DNA of 64,000 nucleotides, from assembly GCA_000004695.1 (NCBI GenBank), contig CM000151.3:8384001-8448000 (forward strand). The letters run 5' to 3'. This document shows, piece after piece, positions 4,249 to 16,726 of the stretch. This stretch comes from Dictyostelium discoideum. Lineage: Eukaryota. Under the pieces are notes generated by a model. That model was not told the origin of the DNA. It ran no database searches and was given only the letters and a program-made list of their open reading frames with translations. The first letter of the stretch is position 1; every line of letters begins with the position of its first letter. The position numbers and the translations under genes are program-made.

Positions 4249-4781
4249 CATGAAATATAAAAAAAAATAATTATTTTTAAATAAAAAAAAAATAAAAAAA
4301 AAATAATATTTTTGTTGACGAAATTAATTTAATACTAATTATAATTTTATTTGTTTTTAAGAGTATAAAATAAACCTATACCAATAATTAAAAAAATTAA
4401 ATATTTTGGTAATTTCGATTGGATATAGTAAATAAAAATATTAAAATAAAAATTAATTTAAATTTTGGTGGTTTCAAAATTTTATTTTAAATAATATTTT
4501 AAATAATATTTTAATAAAATTGTTTTAAAAATTAAAAAATTAAAATTAATTTGGGGCATTAAATAATATGAATTTGGCAAGAATTGAACGCTTGACCAGT
4601 TTATAGTTATGAGCAATTCTCAATAAAGAAATATTGAAAAAATTTTGTATTCATTTAATTATTTTTAAACTAATCAAAATTATTTAGTTAAATTATTGAA
4701 ATCCAATTCAAAAAAAAGTTAAATTATTGAAATTAAAATATAATAAATAAAGAAAATAATGGATTAATTTTCAATTAAAAT

Positions 4782-4817
<36 letters not shown>

Positions 4818-5167
4818 CGTGATAATTCAATGGAAAAATCAATTCACATTCAGGTTTTCTTTGTTTAGGAATATCAAAAATAAAAAAAAAAAACAAAAAA
4901 AATCGTTAGACAATTATTTTAATTTTTTTAAAATATAGATTTAAAAGCTGTTGTTGATATTTAGATTTTTTTTCTTTTATTTTTCACATTATTAAAAATT
5001 TAATAGAAAAAAAATATTAGGATATTTTCTACTTTTTTTTTTTCTAACAGAATTTTCTGCTCATATGTTTCAGTATCGGGTGAAAATCAAAAAGAATTTA
5101 AAATAAAAAAAATAGATTTTATTTTTGCGAGCTGTTAAACAATTCCCACTTTTTGTTATATGTTATG

Positions 5168-5204
<37 letters not shown>

Positions 5205-5300
5205 CGGTTGGCTGATTTTTTTTTTTTTTTTTTTTTTTTAATAATTTTATAATTTTATAATTTTAATCATTTCTGAAATATTAAATAAATAAAAAATAAA

Positions 5301-6209
5301 ATGAGATTAAGCGGTATTCTTTTATTATTATCAGCATTTGCAGGTATTATCAACTCACAATATGTTTTAGTTGAAGAGTTCCAATACCAAGGTGGCAGTT
5401 GCTCTGGTTCACAATCATCAATTGATTCACAATCATCATTCGATTCACAATCATCATGGGGTTCACAATCATCATGGGGTTCACAATCATCATGGGGTTC
5501 ACAATCATCATGGGCCTCACAATCATCATGGGGTTCATCAGATTCATCAAACTTTTTAACAGCATCTGAATCATCAGGTGAAGCATGTCCATCTTCTTCA
5601 ATTGGTGGTAATATCGTTCAAGAAGGTGTTTGCTTCTATTATGCTGATAGATTACCATCAATTTATACCGTCTCTGGTGATAACATTGTTCAAACATTTT
5701 ATAATCAAACTGATTATAATTGTGAAGGTAATTTTTTTTTTTTTTTTTTTTTTTCTCTTCATTAAACTTTAAACTAATATTTATTTTTATTTTTATTTAT
5801 TTATTATTTTAAAATAGGTAAACCAATTGATACTGTTACCGCAGTTAGTGGTGACTGTTACTCTGCATGTAACCAAGGTACTGGTATTACATTCCAATTA
5901 TCAGCAGTTGCAACTCCAGTTATTCCAACTACCAATACAATTGTAGAAGCTGTTTACACTGGTGAATGTAATGGTAATTATAAGAATTCATTCGTTTCAG
6001 TCTATTACAAATCATTAAATACTTGTAATGATAATGTTGTTGCACAACAAGGTACCTTTTCATTTGAAATCTCTTGTAACTCAACTTCATCAGCTGTTAC
6101 TATCTTTGGAAATGATGACTGTGGTGGTAGCCCAGTTTACTCTTTACACGAACCAATGGTCAACCAATGTGGTGATCAATATAATGTCATTGAAGTTTGT
6201 TACAATTAA
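5301..6209 (+). CDS. secreted Cys-rich protein with Ser-rich SQSSWG repeats (same family as 58320/59492/60919 genes), 2 exons
   Basis: Signal peptide MRLSGILLLLSAFAGIINSQ. Exon 1 is 5301..5727, ending ...YNCEG with a phase-1 donor GTAATT; the intron 5728..5817 is AT-rich; exon 2 is 5818..6209 (392 nt), beginning G|GKPIDTVTAVSGDCYSAC and ending ...NQCGDQYNVIEVCYN*. The Cys pattern (CxxxxC...EGVC...NCxG|G...ECxGxW/Y...CN...CNSTSS...C) is shared with the 58-62 kb cluster. Confidence 0.75.
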
Positions 6210-6712
6210 ATTATTGTAAAATTAATCTAAAAAATTTCAATCAAATAAAATTAATATTTAATTTATTTTATTAAACTAAATTATTATTATTATTATTTTT
6301 AATTTTTTTTTTTTTATAAAATGGTAAAACTGGAAAATTTTGGAAAAACAATTTTTTATAAAATGGTGTTTCAAACTCTACATGTAATTCATTATTAAGT
6401 AAAATCAATGTTTTTTGTATGAAATCTGTGTCATAAATAAAAATAAAAAAAAAAAGTTCAAAAAAAAAAATAAAAAAGTTGATTTTTTTTTTTTTTTTTC
6501 ATTTGATAAAATTTATTGATCACGCATAAAAGAAATGTTTTGTGTAAGAAATATATTAGATTTTTTTTTTTTTTTTGATATTTTTTCTATTAACAAAATA
6601 AAATAAAAAATATCTTTTTTTTGAAGATATTTTATGAAACACAATACTCTTTCACAATATTTTTTTTTATTTTTTTCTTTCTTTTTTAATTTACATACAC
6701 ATGCACTAAATT

Positions 6713-8199
6713 TTGAAAATGAATAAAATTATAATATTAATAATAATATTATTTTTTAAATTTATTCAAAGTCAAATAGATATTATAGAAATTAAATCAG
6801 ATAATACACTCTATATAAAAAATCCAGAAAAATCAAAATCAGATTTTTGTAGTTTCTCTTTTACGTATCTAACAATTTTCCCAGAACCTAAATTTGAAAC
6901 TGAAGGATCTATAATAGGTATTTTCGAAAATGCCCCATTTACTCAATTATATTTACTAGCAAATGATACATGTTCTCTTAATGAATATATTATTCCAAAG
7001 ATTACTTTTGGTAATTATGTTTTTTCTGTAAAATCAAACTCAACATCAGGTGAAAAATTTTTATCTACTTATTTTTCATGTGAACGTATGTGTATTAATA
7101 ATTATTAAATAAAATAAATAAATAAATTAATAAATATTTTATTAAAATAAAATGTTTACTCTTTTTTATAGCAATTGATGTTTCAAAATTAAAATTTTCA
7201 TTTACCCCATATCCAATATCTCTAAGACATACACCTTATCAAAAGGGTGTTTTGAGAATTGTTGGATTAAATAGCTCATGCTCTTTAGAAAGTATACCTT
7301 ATTATCAATTACAAGATACTGGATTTGGTTATTATTATATACCAAACTTTAATGATTTTTCTTTGAATGATGAAAATGCAACTTTTCTTTTTTTTAATTC
7401 AAGTTATACAATGACAATTCCAACAATTTATAAAAGTAATTATACTATTTTTAATAAATCTTGTAAAAAAAAAAAAAAAAATAATAATAATTATTTATTT
7501 TTAGATTATAGTAATATTATTGGTGAAATAAAACCATATCCAAATAAGGATAATGTAATTAAATTAGGAAAGTATCAAGGCCCATTCTTTACATTTCAAA
7601 CTTATTTTAGTTCAGATGATACTCCATATTTTATAATAAAACCAGATTTTTCTCCTCCAGTTTTATTATATGGATCAGAGATAAATAATAGTTACACATA
7701 TGCAAATACTCAATCATTTGGTAATTTCAATGCATCTTTATACTCTCAAAAATTTAGTGAAGTAGTAAATGTTTATAATTTTCTTAAAAATGTTAAACGT
7801 GAGTATTGTTTAATTAAAAAAAAAAAAAAAAATAATAATAAAAAATTAATTATATTTTTTTATTTTTATTATTTTAGAATATAATTTGAGTGTTATGCCT
7901 TCAAGTGCAGATATATCATATAAAAATATTGGTAATTTTTCATTATTTACTATTGAAATTACAAATTCAGACCATTATGATTTCAGTAAATATGTTTATA
8001 TGATTAATTCATTTAGCTCTCCTTTATTGCAATGGCCTTATGGTTTTCTTAGTGGAAATAATAATAAGTATAATTTTCAAATAAGAGGTTTCAACTTACC
8101 CATACCAATGACTCAAACTTCTTCTTTTGTCAATATTAATTTTTTAAATAGTAACGGTATAACCCTTGGTATAAATTATAATACTATTGGTATGTGTTT

Positions 8200-8249
<50 letters not shown>

Positions 8250-8627
8250 ATTTAAATTCTAAACTTTTTTTTTACCAAATAAAAGAACCAGGATTTACAG
8301 AAATTGTAATGTTTAATTTTTCTCATTTATTTGACTCTACATATATTTTTAGAATAACAGTAAAACAAAATGGTGAAAATCTAGCAATCAAAGAGATTTT
8401 ATTAGGAACTCGATCATTTTCTTTCGATAAAATGATACCTGGTGGTAATAAAACTTTTGCAACATTTGAAATTGTTTATGATTATAGAAATGAATATTTT
8501 GAAACTATTGCTTTAGTAAATTCTCTTAATTTAATAAACACTTACCATAATGGTGATTGGTATTCAATTAATCCAATGTTACAACTTAAATTTCCGAATT
8601 TAAATGGTTAGTTATTTAGTTATTTAG

Positions 8628-8698
<71 letters not shown>

Positions 8699-8716
8699 TA
8701 TATTTTAATATTAATT

Positions 8717-8753
<37 letters not shown>

Positions 8754-11307
8754 GAAATTGATATCTTTTCAATAAAAGATATATCGTTTTTATATAATAA
8801 TGTTATAGTTTCAAATGAAAATGTATCAAATATAATTTATTTTAATATTTCAAATTTAGATAGTCACAATATACCTATATTTTCAATGAAATTAAATGAT
8901 CCAGTTTCAGAGAAAAATTTGAAATATTATTATTCAACATGGAGTGATAAATTGAAAATGTTTCAAATTGAATTCTTTATTCCTGCAAATACTTTATCAG
9001 GTATCTTACCTTATATTTTATTTTTATCACATACAGTACTTCTTAAAAGTTCTATTTTATCTTCTCAATTATATATAAAATCAAAATGTATGTATTTTTA
9101 AATAAAAAAAAAAAATAAATAAAAAAAACTAATTTTATATTTTTATAGATTTAGATAGTTATGGACCAATATTTAGTGAATTTAAAAATAAAACAATTAA
9201 CAGTACAACATTTGGATGGGAATTTTATATTGAAGATTCAATTAATGGATTTGATCATGGTGAAATTATAGTTAGAGGTGATTTAGATAGTTCGATTTAT
9301 AAATTTCAAATTTCATCATTAAATAATTTATTAATTGGTAATAAATATAGAGGAAAATATGAAATATTAATTAATTTACAAACTAATGTTTGTGCATCAC
9401 AAAATTATATAATAACAAATGTAAATTTATATGATACACAATCGAATTTAGCAACTTTTTCAAAATTAGATAATAATCAACAAATATCATATAAAACACC
9501 ATTTATAAATTATATGGATAATCCAGATATTTTAAAACATTTTAAAGATTGTGGAAACTATGAAGATGTAACACCACCAAAAGTAAACCATTTTGAAATG
9601 AAAAAGAATGGTAGTGAAATACTAGTATTTGATATATTGGTTGAAGATATTGAATCTGGTTTAAAGTATGACCAATATCCAATTGTATATTTAACAAGTG
9701 AATATTTAGATGTGGTTGAATGTATTTCAGAAATTATATCAATTAATTCAACCAATGCTAAATATAGATGTGAAATGAAGGTACCATATGGGTTTGGCTA
9801 TGGTTGTGGTGTATTAGTTGGTGTTTATGGTTTTATTAATAATGGAGGTTTTTATTCAGGTTTTGAAGAAAATTATGATGGTTCAATCATGGATTATAGT
9901 ATTTATCCAAATTTGGTAATTACCAATACAAGTTCTATAACTTCCAATGGTGATGGTAGTTTATGGATAATGGGTAGTGGATTCAATGGTTATATCAATG
10001 TTAAAGTTTATTATTCTGATACCAAATTAACGCCACCATCAGATAATTTGTCACCAATAATTATTTATTATTCAGCACTAATCATTACAGGATTAAAAGC
10101 AACTGATAAACCATTTACTATTCAAATTGAAATGACTAAAAGTTCAGAAACATATCTATCAAATATTTATACAGTTAATCCAGTTGTATTTGATTATAGT
10201 TATGTTGAACCAACAACAACACCATTACCAACAACTCCACCACAAAAATGTATAGGTTCACCAGAATGTGGTGGTTCAGGTCATGGTTATTGTAATGGGT
10301 TACAAGGATGTATATGTTATTCGCCATGGGTTGGATTGGGTTGTACTTCAAAAGTTGTAGTTATACCACCACCAAAATTAAATTCAACAACACCAACATC
10401 TGAATTACCAGTATTAGGTGAAGGTGAAAATAATAATAATAATAATAATTCAACAAATATATTATTTAAATCATTAATATCAATTGTATCATTAAGAGAA
10501 TTAAATTTTCAAGGTAATGTTGTAAATGAATTTAAATTTGAAAAATGGATTTATTCAGAAATCAATTCAAATAAACATCAATATTTTACAAATATTTCAG
10601 TATCACCAACAGTAAACTTTTTAACAACAAGTACTACTGATATTAAAGTAACAATTCAATGGTTCCCAAATCAAACTACAATAGAATTTGCTAATCAATC
10701 ATTAATAATGAATCCATCAACTGTTAAATATACAATTGAAGTTGGTAGTTATAATTTTAAGAATAAATTAAATCAACTTCAATTAGTTTTATCAGCATCA
10801 ATGGATTCAAGTAATACTAACAACATTTGTTCAAAATCTGAATTTGGTAATACAAATTCTGCAGACAATTCAAATTATGTTAAAATTCAAGTTGATAATC
10901 ATTCATTGTATGGTAGATTTATAAAGAGAGCGATAATTGATTCTCAAGTGATATCAATTGAAAATGAACAATTAGATTCTTCAATGAATCCGATTAATAA
11001 TGGATCATCATCCCAATCATTCATTGGTATTACAATTCCATATTATTTATATAATATAATACTTGATCCTGATTTCTCTGTATTAATAGATAGTAAAAAA
11101 GTTTCATCAAATGATGAAAACTCAATTTGTTCAAAATCATCATCAAATTCATCACTGACTGTTTCTCAATTAGCTGGTATCATTATAGCTTCTGCCGTCA
11201 TATTTTTAAGTATTTGTGCAGCTTTAATATTTATTTTAATTAAAAAAAGAAAACATACATTATTATTAATAATGGCAAAAGATATAGTTTTAAAAAGAAA
11301 GAAATAA
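6713..11307 (+). CDS. large multi-exon type-I membrane glycoprotein, IPT/TIG-like + EGF-like + TM (Tgr-like), paralogue A
   Basis: Signal peptide MKMNKIIILIIILFFKFIQSQ. At least 6 exons are joined by phase-1 GTATGT/GTGAGT/GTTAGT donors and (T)nAG acceptors, at approximately 6713-7086, 7171-7793, 7870-8195, 8280-8599, 8751-9087 and 9149-11307. The last exon encodes an IPT/TIG-like stretch (PNLVITNTSSITSNGDGSLWIMGSGFNGYINVKV), an EGF-like module CIGSPECGGSGHGYCNGLQGCICYSPWVGLGC, a TM helix LAGIIIASAVIFLSICAALIFILI and a basic tail KKRKH...; stop at 11305-11307. Many N-glycosylation sequons. Confidence 0.7.
8611..8698. repeat. (TTATTTAG)2-(ATTT)n microsatellite inside an intron of paralogue A
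   Basis: About 17 perfect ATTT units, read directly. Confidence 0.9.
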
Positions 11308-11973
11308 ATAAATTAATTTTATTTTTGAAAACTAATAAAAAAAAAATAAAAAAAAAAAAAAAAAAGAAATGACCTAAAACCACATTTAGTATTCAAAATT
11401 ATCTTTTTAAATTTACTAAAAAAAATATATATAATATAACAATATTTTTTTTTTTTTTTTTTTTTTTTATTAATATTACTAATATCACACTCACAAAATA
11501 ATAATAAAACCATAAAAAAGTACATACCAAAAAAAAAAAAAAAAATAAATAAAACAACCAAATAATTTAAAAAAGTTGTTTTTTTTTTTGGTTATGAAAA
11601 TAGATCATTGATCTTTCTTTTATTTTTTTTTATATATTTTCTCATTTTTTTGTACTTTTCTTTGAAAAAATAAAAAATATATCAGATTTTTAAGTAAGTC
11701 CTCAGAATGTGCAAAGAACCACAAAAAAATTTTGAAAAGTGTAAAGAAAATTACTGGTTTCATATTTTTAAATAAAAATTGAAAATACCCATAAAAAAAA
11801 ACCCCATAAAATATCCAAAGATATTTTTTTAAAAATTATTAAAAAAACATTTTTTTTGAGAACCGCATTCTTTTCTTTTCACTTCATTTTTCAATCCTTT
11901 TTTTTTTTATTTTTAAATTTTGATATAAAAAAAAATTTTATTTTATTTTTACCAAAATGATTTCATAAATATG

Positions 11974-12048
<75 letters not shown>

Positions 12049-12084
12049 AATAAATAAAATAAATAAATAAAATAAATAAATAAA
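11974..12084. repeat. (AAAT)n microsatellite immediately upstream of paralogue B start codon
   Basis: About 25 AAAT units with occasional AAAAT, ending 4 nt before ATG 12089. Confidence 0.9.
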
Positions 12085-12088
12085 AAAA

Positions 12089-15000
12089 ATGAAAAATATA
12101 AATATTATTATTTTATTATTTTTATTAAATGTTTATAATATCAATTGTCAAAGTTTAAATATAATTGATGTATCTCTTGGGAGTAATAGTTTATATCCTT
12201 TGACATCGGATCAAATTGTTTGTTATCTTCAATTAGAAATTCAAGTAATTTCCACATTTAGTGGTTGGTATTCATTTAGTATACCATATTCAAGTGATCC
12301 TTATTTCCCAAATTCAAATTATGTTTTAACATCTCCCGTTTCAAATTCAACTAATACGATTTTTATATATCAAAATCAACCAATACCTTATGGGACTCAT
12401 TCATTTACGATATATTCAGATTTACTACTTTATAATGGTACAGGTTTTGTTCAAATCCTTACAAGTTCTTTTCAAACTGAATATACATGTAATAGTAAGT
12501 ATGAAAATTATATATATACAAATAAATTATTTTAAAAATGATTTTTTTATTAATCACAAATAAATAAATAATAATAAAAAAAAAAAAAAAAGGAATTGAT
12601 GTAAATTTAATACAATTAAATTTCATACCTACAATAAGATCATTTGATCCCAATTCAATGAGAATGGGTGTGTTAAAAGTAAATGGATTACATAATAGTT
12701 GTACTCTTTCGACATCAATTGGTTTTTTACCAGATGGAGGTTCAAATAATTATTGGGTTTTAAATTTTCAAACTCCTTTATCAATTGCTACCAATTCTTT
12801 AAATTTAACAATTTGGTTTGCTGATAAAACTTTTTATATTGATATACCGTCAATATATAAAAGTAGGTAAATTAATTTATTATTATTATTATAATTATTT
12901 TTATTGAATGATTATTTTAAATTATTAATTAAAATTTATTAAGCATTTATTGGTAGCTTTAGTCCTATTACACTATATCCAAATCAAATTAATATTACTA
13001 GATTTGGAATTAATGAATTTCCATTATTCTCTTTTACTGTGGATTCTAAAGATTATCCATATATATTTTATGATAGAGATGTAAGAAGTCCAGTAGTAAT
13101 TGCATATGGTTCAAATGATAATTATACGTATATTGGTATTTTAAGTAATTCTGGTGCATTAACTCAAACTGGTATATATGCACTACAAGGTGACAATATT
13201 AATTTAATTAATAATGTTACAACAGATATTTCAAGTAAGATTAATTATATATATATAAAAAGGATAAAAATTATAATTTATAATATTAATAGGTCATTTT
13301 GATTAATAATAATAATAAATAAATAGGCTTTGTTACAAATGTGATACCATCAACAGGAACCGTTTCAAATTTTTCAAAGATTGGTTCATCAAATATATTT
13401 TCAGTATCATTTGATGGATTTCAAAGTTATGATTTAAATGATTACCAAATAACATTTCAAACTTTATATTCAATAACTCAATGGCCATTTGGTTTCTCTG
13501 GATCAAATAAGAATTTTACATTTGATGCATCATTTTTATTGTCACAAAACTCATCATTAGGAGATCAAAGCATGTTATCAATTTTTCCTTTAAATAATTA
13601 CGGAACTCAATTTAGTGTATACATACCTTTAAATTACCCTGAAAATGGTGGTATGTATTATTAATAATTATAATTTTATTGGGTTTATAATATATATTTA
13701 TTATTCTTTATATTTTTTTTTTAAAAAAATGATAGTAAGTTCACGTATTATTATTACAGATTTTAAAGTGATTCATTTGTTTGATTTCAAATATATTGTT
13801 AGAATGGCCTTTATAATTAATGGTCAACCTTATCCTTTGACATCTATTTCAATAAATGATAAAATATATAAATATGAAAATTTGGCATCAGGTGATTTGA
13901 GTAATGGTGTTTTTGAATTTATTTGGGATTATAAATTCTACATTAATACGATATCCATTAGAACTTTTGCAAATAACGTTTATACTTTAAATTCAAATGA
14001 TTTTTACTCAATAGGCCCAAATAAAAGAATTACTTTCCCTACTTTTAAAAGTAATTATAAATTTATTTATATTTTTATATATTGATTATATATATACTAA
14101 CCAATTAATTTATTATTATTATAATAGCATATGATATTAGTTCAATAAAAGATATTACCTTTTTATATAATAACGTCAATATAACAAATAAATCAGTTTC
14201 AAATATAATGTATTTCAAAATTAATGGATTTAATCCACAAAATCAAACTGCACCAACAATTTGTCTTTTATTAGTGGACCCAGTTTCAACATTTGCTCCT
14301 ACATTAGAACCAGATTCTGGAAAATATTGTTCGAAATGGAATAAAGTTATGGGTGTATTTCAAATTGAATTTATTATACCTTCAAATACACTTTCTGGAG
14401 TTTTACCATACAATTTAATATTTAATCAATATTATTCAATTGAAAGTTCAACACTTTCAAATTCTTCACAACTCTTTATATATTCAAATTGTATGTATTT
14501 TTTTAAAAAAAAAAAAATAATAAAAAAAAAAAAAATTATTAACTTTTAATTTCTATTTTTATAGATTTTGATGCTTATGGACCAATATTTAGTGAATTTA
14601 AAAATAAAACAATTAATAGTACAACATTTGGATGGGAATTTTATATTGAAGATTCAATTAATGGATTTGATCATGGTGAAATTATAGTTAGAGGTGATTT
14701 AGATAGTTCGATTTATAAATTTTATTTAACAATAAATAATTTATTAATTGGTAATAAATATAGAGGAAAATATGAAATATTAATTAATTTACAAACTAAT
14801 GTTTGTGCATCACAAAATTATATAATAACAAATGTGAATTTATATGATACACAATCAAATATAGCAATACATACAAGATTGAATGGTTATAAATATGATT
14901 CGGTAAAAACACCTTTTATAAATTATTTAGATAATTCAGACATTTTACTATTTAATTTACAATGTGGTAGTTTTATTGATGATACTCCGCCACTATTAAA

Positions 15001-16726
15001 ATCATTTGAAATGATTAATTTAATAAATGTAAATCAAAGTTTAATATTTAATTTTGAAGCACAAGATATTGAATCTGGTTTAAAGTATGCTCAATATCCA
15101 ATTGTTTATGCAACCACTTTACATACTGGTATAATTGAATGTGTTTCAAAAATTGTATCAATTAATTCAACCTATGCTAAATACAGATGTGATATGGAAT
15201 TACCTTTTGGCTTTGCTTATGGTCATGATGTAATTTTCACAGTTTATGGGTTTGTTAATAATGGTGGTTATTATTCTGGTTATTCATATGATAAGTTGGT
15301 TGAAATGGGGTTAAATCATAGTATCACATCAATGAATATATATTGGAAATTAGTGATTACCAATTCAAGCTCAATAACGCCAAGTGGTGGAGATTTATGG
15401 GTAATGGGTAAAAGTTTTTCAAATTTTATTTTTAAAAGTGTAAATGTAATTTATTCAGATACTTCATTGACACCTGATAATTTAAAACCAATTGATAGTT
15501 CATTCTATAGTAGTGTATTTTTAATAAGTGGTATTAAAGCAACCAATAAATCATTTACAATTCAAATTATTTCAACAAATGGTAATTCAAATATTTATAC
15601 AGTTCAACCAATTAATTTCCTTTATGATTATATTGATACAAATCAACCACCACCAACAAACCCACCACAAAAATGTATAGGTTCACCAGTATGTGGAGGT
15701 TTAGATCATGGTTATTGTAATGGGCTACAAGGATGTGTATGTTATTCGCCATGGGTTGGATTAGGTTGTACTTCAAAAGTTGTAGTTATACCACCACCAA
15801 AATTAAATTCAACAACACCAACATCTGAATTACCAGTATTAGGTGAAGGTGAAAATAATAATTCAACAAATATATTATTTAAATCATTAGTATCAATTGT
15901 ATCATTAAGAGAATTAAATTTTCAAGGTAATGTTGTAAATGAATTTAAATTTGAAAAATGGATTTATTCAGAAATCAATTCAAATAAACATCAATATTTT
16001 ACAAGTATAAATGTACCATCAACAACATTAAACTCGAATGAAACTACTAGTACTAATATTATGGCAACAATTCAATGGTTCCCAAATCAAACAAATATTC
16101 AATTTGCTAATCAACTATTAACAATGAATCCATCAACTGTTAAATATACAATTGAAATTGGTAGTTATAATTTTAAGAATAAATTAAATCAACTTCAACT
16201 AGTTTTATCAGCATCAATGGATTCAAGTAATACTAATAACATTTGCTCAAAATCTGAATTTGGTAATACAAATTCCGATGATAATTCAAACTATGTTAAA
16301 ATTCAAGTTGATAATCATTCATTGTATGGTAGATTTATAAAGAGAGCGATAATTGATTCTCAAGTGATATCAATTGAAAATGAACAATTAGATTCTTCAA
16401 TGAATCCAATTAATAGTGCATCATCATCTCAATCATTCATTGGTATTACAATTCCATATTATAGATTTGGTATTACACTTGATCCTGATTTCTCTGTATT
16501 GGTTGATGATAAATCTGTTTCAAGTGGTGATGATTCCATTTGTTCAAAATCATCATCATTAACCAATGGTCAATTGGCTGGTATTATAGTTGGTGCCACT
16601 ATATTTGCAAGCATTTGTATTGTTGCTTTAATTATTTTAATTAAAAAAAGAAGACATCTCCTATTATTATTAAGAGCAAAAGATATAGTTTTAGCTGTTA
16701 GAAAACCAAATTATTCAAATAATTAA
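12089..16726 (+). CDS. large multi-exon type-I membrane glycoprotein, IPT/TIG-like + EGF-like + TM (Tgr-like), paralogue B
   Basis: Signal peptide MKNINIIILLFLLNVYNINCQ. At least 7 exons cover the track ORFs 12089-12535, 12658-12870, 13039-13302, 13341-13664, 13645-14085, 14208-14549 and 14565-16726, with the same phase-1 intron pattern as paralogue A. The final exon is more than 90% identical to A in the EGF-like/TM region and ends ...LIKKRRH...; stop at 16724-16726. Confidence 0.7.

Follow-up and report, generated by a model that had tools for sequence, protein, structure and literature searches.

Recurrent, lineage-specific gene conversion in the last exon of two tandem ComC-like surface-protein genes of Dictyostelium discoideum

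Why should two neighbouring genes be almost identical in some parts of a single exon and strongly diverged in the parts between? The question is raised by two adjacent genes of Dictyostelium discoideum, gene A (6719-11307) and gene B (12089-16726), which lie in a stretch of 64,000 nucleotides (nt) of AX4-type chromosome 2 with a GC content of ~22% (GenBank assembly GCA_000004695.1, contig CM000151.3, positions 8,384,001 to 8,448,000), referred to here as the window. Coordinates of A and B are those of the window, and all features described for them are on the forward (+) strand. A sequence-only reading had taken the pair for Tgr-like genes at a polymorphic allorecognition locus and had explained the mosaic by recurrent gene conversion combined with diversifying selection. 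We demonstrate here recurrent, lineage-specific interlocus gene conversion in three tracts of the last exon, exon 7, and find that both genes belong to the ComC-like family and encode type I surface proteins. The reading that we prefer, with a probability of about 0.85, is that A and B are old tandem ComC-like copies which have been repeatedly converted in these three tracts and which would have a role in surface adhesion or signalling.

Both genes have an intact spliced open reading frame (ORF) of seven exons and six introns, all introns being in phase 1 and at homologous positions, so that the tandem, same-strand arrangement and the common exon and phase pattern noticed from the sequence hold. 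Gene A encodes a ComC-like type I membrane protein of 1349 residues (exons 6719-7085, 7172-7435, 7505-7798, 7878-8189, 8286-8606, 8755-9087 and 9149-11307) that matches XP_642466.2/Q54Z87 exactly, and gene B one of 1376 residues (exons 12089-12494, 12593-12862, 12944-13234, 13327-13650, 13736-14050, 14128-14490 and 14565-16726), which is XP_642467.1/Q86AX2. The start codon of A is the ATG at 6719, replacing the TTG at 6713 proposed before, and intron 2 (7436-7504) is 69 nt long, as required for the exact match. A model of A with a 42-nt intron 2 (1358 residues) was dropped because the 69-nt intron reproduces the database entry; the tables of synonymous and nonsynonymous divergence (dS and dN; segment dS, orthologue dN/dS or omega) used this longer model, which is different in 9 residues of exon 2. 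Database annotation describes both genes as uncharacterised and only as 'EGF-like domain-containing protein', and nothing has been found in the literature on either accession, on conversion in the ComC family or on the DUF domain names used below.

The similarity of A and B has been measured by a global nucleotide alignment and by a separate alignment of exon 7, and, as had been anticipated, divergence is non-uniform along the length. Tract 1 (A 9160-9422, B 14576-14835) begins 12 nt into exon 7, spans the N-terminal two thirds of the domain DUF7035 and is 98.1% identical at the nucleotide level. It is followed by an unconverted middle segment (A 9423-10229, B 14836-15654) of 66-72% nucleotide identity, within which 9514-10230 of A and 14927-15655 of B share 66% of their nucleotides and ~50-60% of their residues. 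Tract 2a (A 10230-10591, B 15655-16004; 96.8-97.8% identity, 96.8% for 10230-10550 against 15655-15963) contains the DUF7949 module, which resembles epidermal growth factor (EGF) domains and lies at 10249-10356 in A, together with the first part of the ComC supersandwich. The rest of the supersandwich lies in tract 2b (A 10671-11010, B 16087-16426; 94.1%), and the two tracts are separated by a copy-specific island (A 10592-10670, B ~16005-16086), the region of which is 82.5% identical (10551-10670 against 15964-16086). Identity is 76.6% in the part that encodes the transmembrane (TM) helix and the tail (11011-11307 against 16427-16726). The N-terminal ectodomain of ~630 residues encoded by exons 1-6 (A 6719-9087, B 12089-14490) shows a protein identity of ~15-48%, with 48% in exon 6, 30-39% in exons 2-5 and no similarity detectable by BLASTP in exon 1.

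The mosaic itself has thus been described correctly before, and some of its dimensions have to be revised. The first near-identical block ends at 9422 and not at 9470 (~50 nt), its end in B had been placed ~25 nt too late, and the block 10230-11060, given as about 95-99% identical, reaches 92.8% as a whole, its value being lowered by the diverged island within it. The figure of about 50% protein identity for the diverged parts applies to the middle of exon 7, but not to the upstream exons (30-48%, exon 1 being undetectable). Within the otherwise identical tract 1, the copies differ by 7 mismatches and a 3-nt indel (QISS versus YLT) in a patch of 13 nt (9307-9319), which may mark either the boundary of a conversion or a later micro-event.

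For the history of these segments, orthologous loci have been taken from five assemblies, namely two diverged 'D. discoideum' isolates (L003, ACTFIR; L004, ACTFIW), D. cf. discoideum (L001), D. dimigraforme (L005) and D. firmibasis (L006). In a Sawyer-type permutation with 482 variable sites, the longest concordant runs of A and B have been found at p<0.0001, with two such runs in AX4, one in L003 (where a second run has p=0.0002) and one in L004. The synonymous divergence between the paralogues is 0.05, 0.06 and 0.19 in tracts 1, 2a and 2b (0.13-0.19 for tract 2b), as against 0.72 in the middle segment, where dN is 0.35, 0.48 in the tail and ~0.5-1.5 in exons 1-6; in the island, dN and dS are both ~0.2. 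The tract 2a value of 0.06 in AX4 compares with 0.00-0.01 in the L003 and L004 lineages. Between B and its orthologue in D. dimigraforme or D. firmibasis, dS is 0.26-0.63 in every segment, tracts included (0.26-0.59 for D. dimigraforme; 0.26-0.33 in tract 1), and this evenness shows that the tracts are not mutational cold spots. As flanking genes have a dS of 0.05-0.14 between AX4 and L003 or L004 and of 0.34-0.55 between AX4 and the sister species (0.34-0.44 for D. dimigraforme), the tracts coalesce at about the age of the splits within the discoideum complex. They have been homogenised about when these lineages separated, long after the split of A and B.

The branching order changes along the exon in the same places. 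In a four-taxon (four-point) bootstrap of A, B and the genes of D. dimigraforme and D. firmibasis with 1000 replicates, A has been grouped with B in 952, 996 and 967 replicates for tracts 1, 2a and 2b, the topology of tract 1 (A,B|D. dimigraforme,D. firmibasis) receiving 91-95% bootstrap support, versus 5 replicates for the middle segment, in which B joins the D. dimigraforme orthologue in 995 of the 1000 replicates and A stands outside. Site patterns have been scored in quartets of both copies from two lineages, a concerted site being one at which the two copies of one lineage agree with each other and differ from the two copies of another. Quartets with the diverged lineages contain 2-8 concerted sites per tract (3-4 in tract 1), versus 0-1 among ~300 informative sites outside the tracts. 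In tract 2b of L001, 8 concerted sites stand against 4 orthology sites; the middle segment has 218-230 orthology sites and no concerted site in the full-length quartets, and the island (10592-10670) has 18-21 orthology sites and no concerted site in every quartet, being copy-specific in all four lineages of the complex. Tract extent is lineage-specific as well: the two copies of L001 are 100% identical over ~10710-10900 in tract 2b, and tract 2a of L003 extends ~50-60 nt further in the 5' direction, B being A-like in sequence there. The tract sequence common to both copies is as near to the outgroup orthologue of B as B itself is, which indicates that the founding transfers went from B to A. 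The agreement of synonymous divergence, topology, site patterns and lineage-specific tract extent establishes gene conversion as the source of the mosaic, and the suggestion made from the sequence is borne out in this respect, by the permutation results too.

What kind of proteins are exchanging sequence in this way? A and B share a layout of a signal peptide, ~640 fast-evolving N-terminal residues, DUF7035, DUF7034, a domain of IPT/TIG fold, the EGF-like module, the ComC supersandwich, a TM helix and a short basic tail. Pfam profiles for DUF7035 (114-118 bits), DUF7034 (80-94 bits; cut-off 27 for each of the two), DUF7949 and ComC_SSD match both proteins above the gathering cut-offs, as DUF7743 does for B in addition. 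ComC_SSD (PF22933; profile positions 7-222 of 222) reaches 62.8 bits in A and 63.2 bits in B with a cut-off of 24, and the six-cysteine, EGF-like DUF7949 (PF25820), located directly N-terminal of the supersandwich, 41.3 and 42.7 bits with a cut-off of 27; the motif CIGSPxCGG...GLGC is found at 10249-10344 in A and 15674-15769 in B. The TM helix and the short basic cytoplasmic tail of A occupy 11167-11307, with the motif QLAGII...ILIKKRKH, and the TM helix of B 16571-16648, from where the tail continues to 16726. Hydrophobic N-termini form predicted signal peptides, MNKIIILIIILFFKFIQSQ in A and MKNINIIILLFLLNVYNINCQS in B, and 27-29 NxS/T sequons are present in A and B. The EGF-like module, the TM helix and the basic tail noticed before are accordingly confirmed, by DUF7949, by a helix in the AlphaFold2 model and by the sequence motif, and the signal peptides remain a prediction from the hydrophobic N-termini.

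The IPT/TIG segment has been upheld at the level of the fold and not at that of the profile. DUF7034 of A (9613-9873) is followed by the IPT/TIG-fold domain at ~9886-10194, and the corresponding domain of B (15320-15622) is the stretch called DUF8390 in precomputed Pfam matches, which place DUF8390 between DUF7034 and DUF7949. A separate model of the domain has Ig-like and IPT fold matches, so that an IPT/TIG (E-set) fold is present in the ectodomain, but the TIG profile (PF01833) has no match in A or B even at E<=10. The ComC-family paralogues P0020 and P0031 do match TIG in the same Pfam run, with the domain just before DUF7949. The AlphaFold2 model of the last exon of B (predicted local distance difference test, pLDDT, 81.8) is built of beta-sandwiches arranged as a chain, with a small EGF-like knot, a large sandwich and a single long helix (exon-7 residues 667-711); with the whole exon-7 model, Foldseek finds only generic multi-domain Ig/FN3 receptors with a template-modelling score of about 0.1, and a sequence search of the PDB with exon 7 has given no match. 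The Tgr family membership proposed for the pair is not supported, as the Pfam matches of both proteins are those of the ComC-like family; no tgr-named protein is among the 60 matches listed for the last exon of A, Tgr sequences not having been compared directly. For the N-terminus of A, no close relative or donor paralogue has been found outside the orthologues with search tools of which one demonstrably misses true matches, and a search of representative proteins with 7880-8605 has given 5 weak, multi-stretch matches that are probably due to low complexity. The family namesake comC encodes a protein restricted to group 4 and described as secreted and transmembrane with EGF domains ('Has EGF domains, S+T'; PMC4931340), and its mutant aggregates aberrantly (PMC2873529), a phenotype that is not transferable to A or B.

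Selection acts differently on the two parts of the proteins. The orthologue omega of exon 7 is 0.1-0.4, the middle segment included, and exon 7 is therefore under purifying selection; the diversifying selection postulated for the diverged IPT/TIG region finds no support in these values. Rapid protein evolution does occur, in exons 1-6, where omega amounts to 1.08-1.11 for A and 0.50-0.61 for B, and not in the segment for which it had been proposed; an omega clearly above 1 has been found in none of the segments computed. The N-terminus of A is not simply decaying in AX4, L003 and L004, since 74 random substitutions with the observed spectrum leave it without a stop in 1.3% of simulations (P=0.013) and all 4/4 indels are multiples of three. 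Between AX4 and L003, L004 or L001, dS is 0.04-0.13 in A and B and 0.05-0.14 in the flanking aminoacyl-tRNA synthetase, urocanase and other genes, values that describe four lineages and not a population; the divergence of the pair equals the flanking background and thus gives no sign of deep allelic lineages. L003 and L004 differ from AX4 by a dS of ~0.05-0.14 even in housekeeping genes. Values of this size are far above the expectation for conspecific isolates. One study chose its tropical isolates as likely genetically distinct and regards two other isolates, M4B and S6B, as possible cryptic sister species (PMC12745789).

The two copies have had unequal histories. D. dimigraforme and D. firmibasis (8000-15100 of L005 and L006) possess a single ComC-like gene at the syntenic site, which is the orthologue of B (50-96% identity to B over the full length versus 15-55% to A in the N-terminus and middle), and tblastn has found no remnant of copy A at this site in either species. 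In the unconverted segments, A branches outside B and its orthologues of D. dimigraforme and D. firmibasis, which makes A an older paralogue. In L001, gene A has lost ~2.3 kb (corresponding to 7455-9736 of the window) and carries a frameshift, so that it is dispensable in at least one lineage; part of tract 2b of this degraded copy is nevertheless 100% identical to that of its B neighbour, which implies that a decaying copy still exchanges sequence. The A-B block of L001 (8831-11576 and flanks) is inverted with respect to the flanking urocanase and Rac-like genes, relative to AX4. The small CfaA_B_C-family gene upstream of A (4726-6356) is present in two copies in L001 (4488-6073 and 7334-8703).

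Other histories could produce a mosaic of this kind, and they fare differently against these data. A collapsed or chimeric repeat assembly in the reference, for which no observation speaks, is hardly conceivable, because the same mosaic, with edges that are partly lineage-specific, is found in four independent assemblies: it recurs in an AX2-214-type long-read assembly, which is from the same laboratory lineage and 99.7% identical to the window over 24.7 kb, and in the three assemblies of diverged lineages. We also consider it highly improbable that no conversion has occurred and that uneven purifying selection has acted on copies of equal age throughout. Such selection would agree with the high protein conservation of the tracts (92-96% between B and D. 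dimigraforme versus 50-80% elsewhere), but not with a paralogue dS that falls 5- to 15-fold in the tracts where orthologue dS is uniform, with topology switches of 95-99.6% support or with concerted sites that are confined to the tracts. If a partial duplication or an unequal crossover had occurred only once and recently, B sequence would have replaced the 3' part of A, and the middle, the island and the tail would have diverged very fast thereafter. The tract sequence of both copies is of B type relative to the outgroups, the sister species have one gene only, and the protein evolution of A is accelerated (dN in the middle segment 0.36 between A and D. dimigraforme versus 0.12 between B and D. 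dimigraforme), all of which would fit; the middle segment, however, has an A-B dS of 0.72 that exceeds the 0.55 between B and D. dimigraforme, and places A outside B and D. dimigraforme (99.5%), and must therefore be older than the tracts. Since the tracts moreover differ in age (dS 0.00-0.19) and the conversion events differ between lineages, a single event is quite improbable.

Two further proposals accept conversion and assign it a function in recognition. According to the sequence-only reading, A and B would be a Tgr-like polymorphic allorecognition or adhesion pair, with variation shuffled by conversion and with strain differences in the recognition segments maintained by diversifying selection. 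A surface-protein layout that includes a TM helix and a domain of IPT/TIG fold, conversion within a tandem pair as reported for tgrB paralogues (10.1101/2025.10.22.684067), the omega of the N-terminal exons (~1.1 in A, 0.5-0.6 in B) with an ORF kept open, and the effect of the family namesake comC on aggregation (PMC2873529) speak in its favour. Yet the proteins are not of the Tgr family by Pfam, the segment named as diversifying is under purifying selection (omega 0.1-0.4) and no omega is clearly above 1, between-lineage dS is that of flanking genes (0.04-0.13 versus 0.05-0.14) with no deep allelic lineages, and A has suffered truncation and a frameshift in D. cf. discoideum and is missing at the syntenic site of two sister species, which each have one gene. 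We therefore judge an allorecognition locus of this type improbable, and this part of the earlier proposal is not sustained. Somewhat different is the idea that A and B function as a pair in recognition or adhesion, in cis or in trans, in which conversion, possibly itself selected, keeps the stalk (EGF-like module and supersandwich) and part of DUF7035 identical for a common partner or for co-assembly, and positive selection drives the diversification of the distal N-terminal arrays (omega ~1.1, the ORF being kept open). This seems unlikely to us; if true, it would give the D. discoideum complex a second system of cell-cell recognition, rapidly evolving and distinct from Tgr.

Under our preferred reading of old ComC-like copies with repeated conversion, the tracts in the 2.16-kb last exon have been repeatedly overwritten by non-reciprocal exchange between neighbours 5.4 kb apart, the founding transfers going from B to A and later events proceeding both ways and differing between lineages. 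The tract edges would stay in place mainly because the sequence between them is too diverged (66-82%) for heteroduplex formation, and selection for copy-specific residues in the island (10592-10670) and in the middle segment is possible. A role in surface adhesion or signalling, like that of comC, is suggested by family membership and architecture, and the exchange may keep a membrane-proximal stalk common to both copies, with the distal N-terminal domains free to diverge. Several points have to be set against this reading. There is no GC enrichment in the tracts and hence no independent footprint of biased gene conversion; the tracts are also the parts whose protein sequence is most conserved among species, and purifying selection adds to the amino-acid contrast, but it cannot explain the dS contrast. 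The comparison covers four lineages of the discoideum complex only, one of which is the same laboratory lineage as the window, each single conversion event is carried by 2-8 sites, and the functional part draws on homology and architecture only. Copy A, finally, could either have been lost in the sister species or have arrived later at this site.

Some further features of the window may be recorded. Exons 2-6 of A and B contain 87-120 codons each, a layout of one module per exon of the kind associated with exon shuffling, and BLASTP has detected no similarity between different exons and no internal repeats among exons 2-6. Intron 4 of A contains a T44 run (8202-8245) and intron 5 a (TTAT)24 repeat (8608-8705), and a complementary (ATAA)30 repeat (11965-12088) ends directly at the ATG of gene B. 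No tRNA gene has been detected in a scan of the window.

The value of the locus lies in its being a well-resolved natural case of ongoing interlocus conversion in an extremely AT-rich haploid genome, where a comparison of four related assemblies reveals the edges of the tracts, their direction and their relative ages. It flags the ComC-like family, which is large, uncharacterised and restricted to dictyostelids, as evolutionarily dynamic, the pair combining gain or loss of a copy, a degraded copy that continues to exchange sequence, and fast N-terminal evolution. The mixed histories within one exon call for caution in orthology and dN/dS pipelines, and the pair is a candidate for screens of non-Tgr surface recognition genes. 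By itself, the locus opens no new question.

How, then, does the pair compare with systems already known? The ComC-like family is represented in group-4 Dictyostelium by dozens of paralogues, which often lie together on a single contig. With this family, the pair shares four or five Pfam domains in the same order, all above gathering cut-offs in A and B, and the combination of a signal peptide with a single TM helix, found in A, B and comC. It differs in the long additional N-terminal array of exons 1-6, which has no close relatives outside the orthologues, and in the divergent IPT-fold domain at the place where some paralogues carry a Pfam-recognisable TIG domain. With tgrB1/tgrC1, the pair has in common that adjacent genes encode single-pass surface proteins with Ig-like/IPT-fold ectodomains, and paralogue exchange or interlocus gene conversion has been reported in the tgrB group as well (10.1101/2025.10.22.684067; PMC12745789). 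Tgr proteins are defined by TIG/IPT, E-set and repeats, and deep allelic lineages characterise tgrB1/tgrC1 (PMC12745789). A and B, in contrast, have no TIG Pfam match and possess an EGF-like module and the ComC supersandwich, they are a same-strand tandem, their divergence is at the local background and not extreme, and one sister lineage can do without A. A new self-recognition locus is not what the evidence indicates.

The closest parallel is found in the classic examples of mosaic interlocus conversion, the globin, major histocompatibility complex and opsin duplicates. Sharp-edged tracts of a few hundred base pairs, a collapse of paralogue dS, incongruence of adjacent segments, lineage-specific events and a degraded copy that still takes part are features shared with them, whereas the missing GC enrichment of the tracts, in a genome of 22% GC, and tract positions that are nearly constant in four lineages set the present pair apart. 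What we describe is a clean but ordinary gene conversion, which adds a new example of a known process in a family that is itself known, though unstudied.

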